A DNA stretch of 64,000 bases, taken from positions 95,369-159,368 of the forward strand of contig JAZQXU010000037.1 in the NCBI GenBank assembly GCA_045632945.1, in the 5' to 3' direction. Positions 4,365 through 14,741 of the stretch are shown piece by piece (position 1 is the stretch's first letter; the number at the start of each line of letters is the position of its first letter). This DNA is from Faecalimonas sp. GTDB lineage: Bacteria > Bacillota > Clostridia > Lachnospirales > Lachnospiraceae. A model generated the notes under the pieces. The model did not search any database and was not told the origin of the DNA. It saw only the letters and a list, made by a program, of their open reading frames with translations. Both the position numbers and the translations under genes were made by a program.

Positions 4365-4488
4365 AATTCCATCTCCTTGTTTCTGTCATTATTATCAATC
4401 AAAGTGTTCAGTAGATAGTATAACACGACACACACATGAATACCACACAAAAACTAAACATGTAAATCTAAAATATTCTTTTTATGAC

Positions 4489-4517
4489 TTGAACCAAGAA
4501 CATATGTTTGTTATAAT
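4489..4517 (+). promoter_or_regulatory. SigA-type promoter of the small toxin gene
   Basis: TTGAAC (4489-4494), 17 nt, TATAAT (4512-4517), with extended -10 TG at 4509-4510. Confidence 0.8.
4497..4510. promoter_or_regulatory. LexA (SOS/Cheo) box candidate
   Basis: AGAACATATGTTTG fits the Firmicutes GAAC-N4-GTTY consensus and lies in the -35/-10 spacer. Confidence 0.65.
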
Positions 4518-4638
4518 ATATTCAGGTGCTACCTCACATTGACGTGTGACTGGCGGTTTGCTTCTTGCGGAGAGTTCATAGCTCCGATTACATAGATTTC
4601 ATCCCTTCGGGGAAATCTTGGAAAGGAGAACTAGTCAT

Positions 4639-4740
4639 ATGCTTACCATAAGTGACCTCATAACTGTAATTGCACTTTGTGCTACTTTTTATAGTCTTGG
4701 TTATCTGCATGGGCAGCATGATTCCAAGACGCAAAAATAA
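4639..4740 (+). CDS. 33-aa hydrophobic peptide, putative type I toxin (holin-like)
   Basis: SD GAAAGGAG at 4621-4628; MLTISDLITVIALCATFYSLGYLHGQHDSKTQK is one TM segment with a polar tail; below the ORF track cut-off. Confidence 0.8.
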   Translation: MLTISDLITVIALCATFYSLGYLHGQHDSKTQK

Positions 4741-4774
4741 CCGCCCTGTCCTGACAAACTTGGCGGTTATTTTT
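4733..4774. terminator. Bidirectional intrinsic terminator overlapping the toxin stop codon
   Basis: 13-bp perfect inverted repeat AAAAATAACCGCC / GGCGGTTATTTTT. Confidence 0.8.
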
Positions 4775-4822
4775 AATAACTAAAAACATATCAGGCGAAC
4801 CGTCATCGGTAGCACCTTTCTA
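4733..4822 (-). ncRNA. Putative antisense antitoxin RNA (~90 nt)
   Basis: Convergent promoter at 4828-4856; transcript would end at the shared hairpin 4733-4774 with a U-tract; ends approximate. Confidence 0.65.
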
Positions 4823-4827
4823 CCATT

Positions 4828-4856
4828 ATACTAACACTGTTTTTCTATTCTGTCAA
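4828..4856 (-). promoter_or_regulatory. SigA-type promoter of the antisense RNA
   Basis: Minus strand TTGACA (4856-4851), 17 nt, TAGTAT (4833-4828) with TG extension; overlapping TATAAT at 4830-4825. Confidence 0.75.
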
Positions 4857-4974
4857 ACACATATCCTATTTTCTATTCAAGTCTACATTTGTTGATATAT
4901 ACCGGGTAATTTCCCCATACAGATTGGATGTTGCAATTTTTGCAACACCCAAGAATTTCTCTAATTCACCTGTT

Positions 4975-12413: not shown

Positions 12414-13628
12414 TTATTTTACACGAATCATCTGACAAATCTGTGGGAAATTGCCGGCAAGTGCTTCATATTGGCCCTCACTCATAGTATCTGTCACAAA
12501 ACCGAATTCTTCCTGCTCGCCTTCTAAAATTAAGGTTTGAACAGGACCAAATACTGCTTCTACTTTTTCTTTTAACTCAGTTATATTTCCTTTGATGCGA
12601 ACAAAAAATCTATAAGTTGTATCCGCTTTATCCTTAAGCTCTAATTTTTCTGCATCCCATGTAGCCATCATGCTGCGATTCGGATTTTTCGCTGCTTCTA
12701 CGATATCTCCTACTACTGCACTGGCAGTTGGAAGTTTGCCGGCTCCGCTTCCATAGAACATAGAATCGCCCAGCATATTTCCTTTTACGAAAATCGCGTT
12801 AAATACATCCTCAATGTTATAAAGCGGATGATCTTTTGACACAAAATGCGGAGCAACAATTGCACATATTTTATCTTCCATACGTTTACATGAAGCAAGC
12901 AACTTGATTTTCATGTCCATTGCCTTTGCATATTCCATGTCAACCGGAGTGATTTTTGTGATTCCTTCTGTATAAATATCTTCAAAGTCAACTGTTTCAC
13001 CTGAAATAATGGAAGAAAGAATCGCAATCTTTCTGCACGCGTCATGTCCCTCCACATCGGCACTTGGATCTCTTTCTGCGTATCCCATTGCCTGTGCTTC
13101 TTTTAAGACTGCATCATAATCTGCATTTTCATGATACATTTTACTAAGCATATAGTTGGTTGTACCATTAAGTATACCTGTGATTTCCTCAATTACATCT
13201 CCTGTAAGCGCCGAAGCAAGAGGACGAATAATCGGAATGCCTCCTCCTACGCTGGCTTCATAAAGGAAATTAATCTCCTTTTCCTTTGCAATCGACAATA
13301 GCTCTGCGCCATGCTTTGCAACCAAAGCTTTATTGGATGTAATGACACTCTTTCCGGCAAGTAAACTCTTTTTCACAAATGTGTATGCCGGTTCGATACC
13401 ACCCATTACTTCAACCACAATGGAAACCTCATCATCATTTTCAATATCATTGAAATCATGGGTTACCAAATGTTCAATCGGTGTTCCCGGGAATTCTCTC
13501 AAATCCAAAATATGTTTGATATCAATTTTGTCGCCAATTCTTTGAGCAATCACATCACCGTTTGTCTGAAGAACTTCAACGACTCCCGAACCAACTGTCC
13601 CGTATCCTAATATTGCAATCTTTATCAT
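12414..13628 (-). CDS. hom: Homoserine dehydrogenase
   Basis: LGYGTVGSG, YEASVGGGIP, GILNGTTNY, GYAERDPSADVEG. Confidence 0.95.
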   Translation of the reverse strand: MIKIAILGYGTVGSGVVEVLQTNGDVIAQRIGDKIDIKHILDLREFPGTPIEHLVTHDFNDIENDDEVSIVVEVMGGIEPAYTFVKKSLLAGKSVITSNKALVAKHGAELLSIAKEKEINFLYEASVGGGIPIIRPLASALTGDVIEEITGILNGTTNYMLSKMYHENADYDAVLKEAQAMGYAERDPSADVEGHDACRKIAILSSIISGETVDFEDIYTEGITKITPVDMEYAKAMDMKIKLLASCKRMEDKICAIVAPHFVSKDHPLYNIEDVFNAIFVKGNMLGDSMFYGSGAGKLPTASAVVGDIVEAAKNPNRSMMATWDAEKLELKDKADTTYRFFVRIKGNITELKEKVEAVFGPVQTLILEGEQEEFGFVTDTMSEGQYEALAGNFPQICQMIRVK

Positions 13629-14741
13629 AATGTCTCCTCCTTACTTCGCTCTTTGAGATATGCATTCATAAATAAATCAATGTTTCCATCTAATACACTC
13701 GAAACATTTCCTGTTTCTGCGTTTGTTCTATGATCCTTTACCATGGTATATGGCTGCATAACATAAGAACGAATCTGATTCCCAAAACCAATGTCTTTGA
13801 TTTCGCCTCTGATGTCAGATACCTTTTCTGCCTGTTCCTGTTCTTTAATCAAATACAGTTTTGCTTTGAGCATCTGCATGGCTTTATCTTTATTCATATG
13901 CTGTGAACGTTCATTTTGACACTGTACCACAATCCCCGTCGGAAGGTGGGTAATACGAACCGCCGAAGATGTTTTATTAATGTGTTGTCCGCCTGCCCCA
14001 CTGGAGCGATAGGTGTCAATTCGCAAATCATCTTCATTAATTTCGATATCGATTTCATCTTCAATGTCCGGAACGACATCACAAGATGCAAACGACGTCT
14101 GCCTCTTTCCCGCTGCATTAAATGGCGAAATTCTCACCAAACGGTGAACACCTTTTTCTGATTTCAAATACCCATAGGCATTTTCTCCGTTCACCTGAAA
14201 TGTAACTGCTTTAATACCTGCTACATCGCCGTCTAAAAAGTCTAAAACATCAACAGAAAATCCTTTCCGCTCAGCCCATCGGCTGTACATGCGATACAGC
14301 ATACCGGCCCAGTCGCAGGATTCTGTTCCGCCGGCTCCGGCATGCAACGTTACAATTGCATTGTCCTTGTCGTATTCTCCCGACAAAAGTGTCTGGATTC
14401 TCATCTCTTCAAACGTAGCTTCAAACTGTTGCAATTCTGCCTCAATATCTGCAACCATGTCTGCATCTTCTTCCTCATATGCCATTTCTATCAGCAAGCC
14501 GATGTCTTCAAATTGCACTTGCAGTGTATCTGCTCTTTCCAATAAATCCTTGAGCCCTTTCAACTCTTTCATAACGTACTGAGACTCCTCAGCATTGTCC
14601 CAAAAGCCTGGCTCTTCTATCTTTCTTTCTAATTCTTCAACCCGCTTTTCCTTTTCTGTCAGGTCAAAGTGAATCCCTCAATTCACAGAGTGGTTTTTCA
14701 TATGAGTTTAACGTACTTTTAAACTGATCTAATTCAACCAC
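13625..14741 (-). CDS. prfB: Peptide chain release factor 2 with programmed +1 frameshift (join 14741-14667, 14665-13625; 371 aa)
   Basis: GGQ and SPF motifs; GTG start at 14741 after SD AGAGGTGA; 25 codons, then AGGGA-TTCA-CTT-TGA-C. Confidence 0.95.
14663..14678 (-). promoter_or_regulatory. RF2 autoregulatory frameshift cassette
   Basis: Internal SD AGGGA followed by CTT TGA C, the canonical prfB shift site. Confidence 0.92.

Follow-up and report, generated by a model that had tools for sequence, protein, structure and literature searches.

Organization of the locus

The locus occupies the intergenic gap at positions 4365-4974 of the 64,000-nt stretch of DNA analyzed here (the window) and is flanked by two minus-strand genes, one for a DUF2156/LPG_synthase_C protein and one that is cadherin-like. 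A preliminary description had placed in a 600-bp gap two convergent promoters, a Shine-Dalgarno (SD) sequence, a 33-aa ORF and a 13-bp hairpin over its stop codon, and all of these are found in the sequence (Table 1); the LexA-type operator in the toxin promoter is an addition to that first reading. The locus had also been called unannotated, which holds only in part, since the exact peptide is already called as a gene in public collections (26 contigs), although named members of its cluster are few and labeled 'hypothetical'.

Table 1. Positions of the features of the locus, numbered from the first letter of the window.
Feature	Position	Strand	Details
Toxin mRNA promoter, sigma70/SigA-type, TTGAAC-17-TATAAT	4489..4517	+	-35 at 4489-4494, -10 at 4512-4517
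LexA-type operator (GAAC-N4-GTTY)	4497..4510	.	fills the -35/-10 spacer, ends 1 nt before the -10
Extended -10 TG of the toxin promoter	4509-4510	+	
5' arm of the long-range mRNA helix	4524..4563 (4524-4533 and 4551-4563)	+	could pair instead with the ribosome-binding region (prediction)
Leader hairpin	4567..4586	+	helix 5; 3' arm CTCC (4582-4585) can also pair with the SD, from SD partner probabilities
SD core AGGAG	4624..4628	+	conserved in the locus alignment
33-aa putative toxin ORF	4639..4740	+	ATG 4639, stop 4738-4740
Terminator hairpin across the stop codon	4733..4774	-	arms 4733-4745 and 4762-4774, 13/13 complementary
3' arm of the long-range mRNA helix	4793..4817 (4793-4805 and 4808-4817)	+	short U tract follows; predicted mRNA 3' end ~4820
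Predicted ~90-nt antisense RNA, putative antitoxin	4733..4822	-	5' stem-loop, AU-rich linker, terminator
Antisense promoter TTGACA-17-TAGTAT	4828..4856	-	-35 at 4856-4851, -10 at 4833-4828; without LexA-type site

Taken by themselves, the promoter matches do not outnumber those expected by chance in so AT-rich a stretch (3 versus 7.2 in shuffles), and the hairpin at 4733-4774 was not listed by the terminator scan of the same promoter-scanning tool. Because the promoter matches alone do not exceed chance, the case presented here rests on conservation and comparison.

Elsewhere in the window, a release factor 2-like ORF (13625-14572) appears to start without its N-terminus, which we take to be the expected result of the programmed frameshift of prfB.

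The peptide is a conserved small gene

The encoded peptide comprises one hydrophobic helix with a conserved G21-x3-G25 and a Lys-rich polar tail, and is predicted to sit in the membrane. AlphaFold models it as a single helix spanning residues 4-30 (mean pLDDT 81); a homodimer prediction scored 0.11 and gave no usable answer. Among 48 sequences G21 is invariant and Y22, G25 and K33 are nearly so, and the small residues and Cys of the peptide are strongly conserved. Its hydrophobicity is modest, with a best 19-residue mean of 1.75. Using the natural 40-aa frame as query, 21/21 candidates were obtained at E <= 0.1, most of them 33 aa long and 79-97% identical, and the 90% cluster of the peptide includes hypothetical proteins of Dorea formicigenerans and Butyrivibrio hungatei. 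Differences among 13 close homologues fall on the three codon positions as 56/28/130, and 106 synonymous versus 69 non-synonymous codons were counted in the peptide gene of 13 close loci. Judged by these substitution patterns, the peptide gene is under purifying selection and is a real, conserved gene. Furthermore, the ORF is conserved in relatives together with its SD and hairpin, a conservation on which the first description had staked its reading. Short length (within 20-60 aa), hydrophobicity, one predicted transmembrane helix, a charged C-terminus and coding selection are the traits expected of a type I toxin, and all are found here; the peptide is likely toxic and likely held in check by the RNA predicted on the opposite strand.

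Distribution and decay of the module

A profile search identified homologues in 90/401 Lachnospiraceae genomes and in 5/47 genomes of the genus; with a wider profile, 21/301 genomes of the order were positive, 15 of these within Lachnospiraceae. Up to four copies are present per genome, and tandem copies occur. Neighboring genes are unrelated between loci (93 of 117 neighbor ORFs scanned), and a transposase adjoins 2 loci among these 93 neighbors. The assembly that holds the locus, which is 84% complete, contains no second copy of the module and no Hol_Tox gene, and BLASTN over 41 related genomes returned three weak matches besides the locus itself. At 14 loci of the genus with either flanking gene, the DNA fetched did not contain the peptide and both genes had other neighbors. 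Phage and plasmid collections gave only 1 and 2 partial matches, respectively, to the 3' half, so no regular prophage or plasmid link is shown; on viral contigs, the first version of the DNA pattern found 1 real locus in 56. In one sequencing run, in which no contig spans the whole stretch, a relative was found with flanks ~88-91% identical and a module core with 1 difference in 177 nt, at similar depth.

The 90 loci fetched gave 93 peptide hits, 64 of which had a leader, tail and flanks scorable by patterns, and the 29 dropped rows were read by eye. Eight of these are complete or nearly so, 2 lie at contig edges and 3 are damaged in mixed ways. Thirteen keep the antisense half and have lost the toxin promoter, leader or start, and in all 3 rows without the antisense half the toxin gene is damaged. 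Such one-sided decay is the pattern expected of an addiction module, although assembly breaks at repeats could have made some of these rows.

At seven loci (L163, L171, L170, L210, L220, L245 and L266) the module, or its antisense half, is present twice, 300-900 nt apart, which suggests spread by local duplication. At another locus (L164) a copy of the module lies between genes for type II topoisomerase subunits, one gyrB-like and one gyrA-like. Records titled Escherichia coli, Bacteroides thetaiotaomicron and Segatella copri (L202, L218 and L220) contain the clostridial RNA frame, and mis-binned or mislabeled contigs are a more likely explanation of these than transfer.

The stop-codon hairpin belongs mainly to a predicted antisense RNA

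The antisense promoter matches at 9/12 or better at a fixed place in 57/64 scorable loci, compared with 99/1500 random windows, and the toxin promoter does so in 51/64 homologous loci; most loci missing the antisense promoter have an extra hairpin that shifts the region. This fixed placement argues for the earlier proposal that a convergent promoter would produce a ~90-nt RNA ending at the hairpin. The predicted antisense length is 79-98 nt where the promoter reaches 9/12, and the fold of the antisense RNA has a z of -4.6.

The hairpin had been described as carrying U-tracts on both strands, a layout in which it would serve both RNAs. It does have T tracts on both strands (5.5 and 5.8 of 9), so some mRNA may stop there, but its non-Watson-Crick cells favor the antisense strand, 53 being G-U on that strand versus 4 on the sense strand; because of this bias, the hairpin appears to be selected mainly as RNA of the antisense strand. 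A cis-antisense gene with its own promoter and terminator, as expected of a type I system, is thereby recognizable at the level of sequence.

Two unstranded contigs were rejected as evidence of transcription. One, of 250 nt and identical to 4568-4817, comes from an RNA-labeled run that also contains contigs of up to 53 kb and in which the flanking genes have similar depth; the other, a 207-nt contig of a relative, occurs in a pair of small runs that appear to be a single data set.

A predicted long-range helix in the toxin mRNA

Folding of 4523-4822 pairs 4524-4533 with 4808-4817 and 4551-4563 with 4793-4805 (z -7.2), whereas the sense RNA cut at 4776, at the hairpin, reaches a z of only -3.2. 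The 3' partner of the leader is thus sequence 20-45 nt beyond the hairpin, and the helix covaries. With 52 of the 56 listed loci aligned by MAFFT, 91.8% of cells are paired and 24/47 pairs have changed on both sides. None of 500 shuffles equaled this structure support, and slid controls paired at 35-51%, a control that favors the structure, drawn as it was from two of the aligned sequences. The leader hairpin is paired in 98.8% of cells. The long-range helix contains 169 sense G-U cells versus 16 A-C cells (81 versus 16 without two near-fixed columns), and because of this sense-strand bias it is assigned to the mRNA. Since the 5' leader pairs, with strong covariation, with the tail beyond the hairpin, the toxin mRNA most likely reads through the hairpin to ~4820 and covers the whole antisense RNA. 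No strong separate terminator was found after 4817, where the tail hairpin amounts to about -8 kcal/mol. Covariation thus points to a 5'-3' long-range helix in the toxin mRNA, as in bsrG/SR4-type regulation.

Pairing of the leader with the SD region is calculated at -16.4 kcal/mol, versus -10.8 for an ORF window and -11.1 for a shuffled SD, and cognate pairing is only slightly stronger than non-cognate (-16.4 versus -15.5; 36/60 loci, these being related and so not independent). Leader-tail pairing, at -29.9, is far better than leader-SD pairing. With the antisense-covered part blocked, the folding model predicts a ribosome-binding site that is harder to open in 55/60 loci, by a mean of 2.3 kcal/mol. 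Under this model, a switch between leader-tail and leader-SD pairing that parallels bsrG/SR4 is likely.

In one sub-lineage (L162, L169, L172, L174, L313 and L318) an extra GC-rich hairpin stands just 3' of the 3' arm of the long helix, and might terminate the mRNA in the way that SL4 does for bsrG. At several other loci (L161, L166 and L366) the leader hairpin has a palindromic insertion of ~50 nt in its loop, and L314 has a similar one upstream; the insertion resembles a short repetitive extragenic element of this family.

Family relations of the peptide and its RNA frame

The preliminary description could assign the peptide to no characterized family. In keeping with this, no hit reached the curated cut-offs of Hol_Tox (PF16935), PepG1 (NF041589) or ComI (NF052249), and Pfam, NCBIfam and PHROGs returned only sub-threshold hydrophobic matches; the JGI label 'MnhD subunit' on P0014 was set aside as a likely match of that kind. 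Rfam gave nothing at gathering score in the window, only chance matches by E-value, with no RatA, SprF or other antitoxin model, and, on 20 related loci, a tRNA only. In the ESM Atlas unnamed clusters came first and a Hol_Tox cluster appeared only at 0.82, a lead only.

In Clostridia and in contigs of gut phages, on the other hand, numerous further short hydrophobic peptides are encoded within the same RNA frame. Among 108 frame-sharing peptides, 13 have a match to Hol_Tox, 11 to ComI and 4 to PepG1 at E <= 0.01, and two peptides in the same frame (L234 and L290) pass the Hol_Tox cut-off. Profile-profile comparison (hhalign) with TxpA/Hol_Tox-type peptides gave a probability of 74% (E 2.7e-5, 26 columns), a value that might be due to hydrophobicity alone. 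Common descent with Hol_Tox-type peptides is supported by the RNA frame in which both occur. The peptide is thus probably a divergent branch of the TxpA/SprG/Hol_Tox superfamily, outside every curated family, rather than the unrelated family that the lack of an assignment might have implied, and it differs from those peptides by a motif of its own (LGY-x2-G) and a longer polar tail. A Dorea peptide of the Hol_Tox type stands in the TxpA alignment of Fozo 2010 (PMC2887945), and peptides like it are likewise encoded in the RNA frame described here. The motifs of the peptide were not found in any of 7 supplementary files searched, nor did a 15-letter or word search match in 6 of the 8 supplementary files of PMC8040213.

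A LexA-type operator in the toxin promoter

Between its -35 and -10 the toxin promoter contains AGAACATATGTTTG (4497-4510). Scored with a matrix trained on the lexA promoters of relatives only, this site comes third in the assembly (1.88 Mb) and ahead of the recA site. Several of the top 12 matrix matches in the genome stand before no obvious SOS gene. In 5/5 near-complete genus relatives lexA is preceded by two to three palindromes of this type, and a site of this type also precedes recA in this genome; two further ones precede what we take to be uvrB and a umuC-like polymerase gene. The operator is equal at 14/16 positions to the C. difficile recA operator in the SPR target table of PMC4234289, where the clostridial LexA operator is given as GAAC-N4-GTTT/C and C. 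difficile LexA bound 16/20 fragments by SPR.

When the 64 loci were scored with a matrix to which three sites from this genome (recA, uvrB and umuC-like) had been added, 19 toxin promoters reached at least 9 bits (17 at least 12 bits), and 18 of the sites end 1 nt before the -10. No antisense promoter reached 12 bits (0/64), five having a weak 9-11 bit match at the -35. The background is 2/1088 promoter-like sites in this genome, one of them this locus, and 11/1500 random windows. The operator is present in 8/14 of the closest loci, and its offset is fixed and both half-sites are kept across many genera; its right half-site shares bases with the extended -10 TG, and the match can be inflated by this. 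Cultured carriers of the operator include Butyrivibrio hungatei XBD2006 (L229). A second set was collected from GTDB genomes by the terminator-plus-tail pattern alone (at least 120 stretches, 83 scorable); among the matches listed, the site is found in 14/31 loci with this peptide type versus 3/52 with other peptides. On a tree built without the promoter, 21/64 rows carry the operator (in a wider window) and at least 7 changes are needed, and the five loci nearest on the tree lack it; because of these absences and changes, the operator appears dispensable for the module. Judged from sequence and its conservation, then, an operator of the host's LexA type overlaps the toxin promoter at a conserved position, as expected of a LexA regulon member.

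Full-length lexA is absent from this 84% complete assembly, and 5/5 genus relatives have it. The sole LexA-like sequence is a ~75-aa ORF with only the LexA DNA-binding domain (G000:C26:11048-11260; L296), and the neighbors from the lexA loci of 4 relatives had no close match in the assembly and one distant match. Absence of lexA together with its neighbors is consistent with an assembly gap at 84% completeness; loss is also possible.

The neighbors of the ORF with the LexA domain are a DinB-like polymerase gene on one side and a small ORF on the other. Another promoter of this genome (G000:C40:9724) also has a LexA-type site at that place in its spacer and is upstream of what are presumably excisionase-like and integrase-like ORFs, which suggests an SOS-linked integrated element. 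At a further locus (L311, ~1215-1370), a promoter with a strong LexA-type site directly precedes the peptide ORF with almost no leader; there the C-terminus of the peptide is altered and the antisense half is kept.

Proposed mechanism and alternative explanations

Taken together, the comparative evidence supports the initial reading of the locus as a type I toxin-antitoxin module, which we consider highly probable. That it is also SOS-inducible and bsrG-like is the combined reading that we favor as probable. On this model, a ~300-nt mRNA would encode a probably toxic single-helix membrane peptide, and the predicted ~90-nt antisense RNA would silence it. During normal growth LexA would hold toxin transcription low, and constitutive antisense RNA would pair with the last ~90 nt of any mRNA made, which would yield a duplex for RNase III to cut and release the 5' leader, allowing it to fold onto the ribosome-binding site, as in B. 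subtilis bsrG/SR4. Upon DNA damage, LexA would be cleaved and the mRNA would out-titrate the antisense RNA; the peptide would then insert in the membrane and arrest or kill the cell, like E. coli TisB.

An ordinary bsrG/txpA-like module, with a vestigial or unused palindrome and expression independent of the SOS response, is the alternative that survives best, although we consider it unlikely. It would account for an assembly without full lexA, for the lack of an operator in about two thirds of loci, including the five nearest, and, through the overlap of the right half-site with the extended -10, for the match itself. It does not readily explain why matching sites stand in the same genome before recA and, as we take them to be, uvrB and a umuC-like polymerase gene, why 5/5 near-complete genus relatives carry lexA with the same boxes, or why offset and both half-sites have been kept across many genera.

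Accepting SOS induction, the peptide might instead be a small membrane regulator that slows growth via a protein target and does not depolarize the membrane, with the antisense RNA sharpening its shut-off. SidA, SosA and YneA are SOS-induced division inhibitors of this kind. The conserved small residues and Cys could mark a protein-contact face, and modest hydrophobicity and the LexA-type operator would suit such a role. We nevertheless judge it rather improbable, given the patchy, multicopy and tandem occurrence at unrelated sites, the Hol_Tox peptides in the same RNA frame, the many loci (most of them) without operator and the one-sided decay.

Termination of both RNAs at one bidirectional hairpin, with only ~40 nt of overlap and no 5'-3' pairing in vivo, would be in line with the T tracts on both sides and with the want of a strong separate terminator after 4817; the sense G-U bias and compensatory changes in the long helix, and the antisense-strand bias of the hairpin, make this very improbable. 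Least credible of all is a miniature mobile element with a harmless passenger ORF, in which the inverted repeats at the ends would be recognized as DNA, since, for all the likeness of its two ends (promoter, then the same 10-mer), the unrelated insertion sites and the tandem copies, DNA repeats should lack the strand bias observed (169 G-U versus 16 A-C), the ORF appears to be under purifying selection, and a transposase adjoins only 2 loci (93 neighbors scanned).

Comparison with known systems

The SOS-inducible, bsrG-like module proposed here shares with bsrG/SR4 of B. subtilis the 5'-3' mRNA helix, the convergent antisense RNA and the single-helix peptide. As described in PMC3834814, the bsrG mRNA is ~296 nt long and its 5' 35 nt pair with a 3' segment to form helix P1, which SR4, a convergent antisense RNA, opens, freeing the 5' end and lengthening the SD stem. 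In contrast to the present locus, bsrG carries a terminator of its own downstream of P1, and SR4 has about twice the length and overlaps the mRNA only in part, whereas the ~90-nt antisense RNA here lies wholly inside the predicted mRNA, and no LexA control is described in the portions of PMC3834814 available to us. The likeness described here is one of design. TxpA/RatA and SprG/SprF have the same tail-to-tail layout, and the RNA frame found here also carries Hol_Tox peptides.

In tisB/IstR-1 and dinQ/AgrB of E. coli, too, LexA has a site at the toxin promoter and none at the antisense promoter, and the mRNA joins a long structured leader to the coding sequence of a short membrane peptide (PMC8309996, PMC11951105, in the parts consulted). 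They differ in operator type and phylum, and their antitoxins are encoded 5' of the mRNA and do not overlap it. We found no sequence likeness to either system, and the SOS link would be convergent with theirs.

Among clostridial modules, CD2517.1/RCd8 of C. difficile also consists of convergent overlapping RNAs with a long 5' UTR and a small, hydrophobic peptide with a charged C-terminus (PMC6563280). The C. difficile modules are CRISPR- or prophage-linked and SigB-linked, and the review, in the text available, mentions neither LexA nor Lachnospiraceae; the likeness described here is one of layout and peptide type.

Fst/RNAII (par) was rejected as a model. In par, direct repeats DRa/DRb give the 5' complementarity and the antisense RNA has no overlap with the ORF; here the long repeats are inverted, leader and tail share just one direct repeat, of 8 nt, and the antisense RNA extends over the stop codon.

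Implications for gut Lachnospiraceae

In full-text searches of mainly non-subscription papers, we came across neither this peptide branch nor a Gram-positive type I toxin under LexA control. The portions of four reviews that we consulted (PMC6563280, PMC11951105, PMC8309996 and PMC8167048) name only E. coli systems as SOS-induced type I toxins, namely tisB, dinQ, symE and hokE; one of these reviews (PMC8167048) once places TisB/IstR in B. subtilis, apparently in error, and elsewhere under Escherichia. In E. coli, TisB drives fluoroquinolone persistence.

On balance, we lean towards the view that a widespread type I lineage of gut Lachnospiraceae has wired its toxin promoter to LexA, with the operator gained and lost several times. 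It would be a Gram-positive counterpart of TisB/DinQ that evolved independently on a bsrG-like RNA switch and that, following prophage induction or exposure to DNA-damaging antibiotics, may render these commensals dormant or kill them. Because neither Rfam nor Pfam covers this branch, its conserved RNA frame would allow many unnamed small ORFs in Clostridia to be recognized. The occurrence of the module with and without operator would constitute a natural experiment on the recruitment of selfish addiction modules into stress regulons and, if the proposal is true, a LexA-gated module in abundant gut and rumen Lachnospiraceae would provide a handle on their survival or collapse under DNA-damaging antibiotics.
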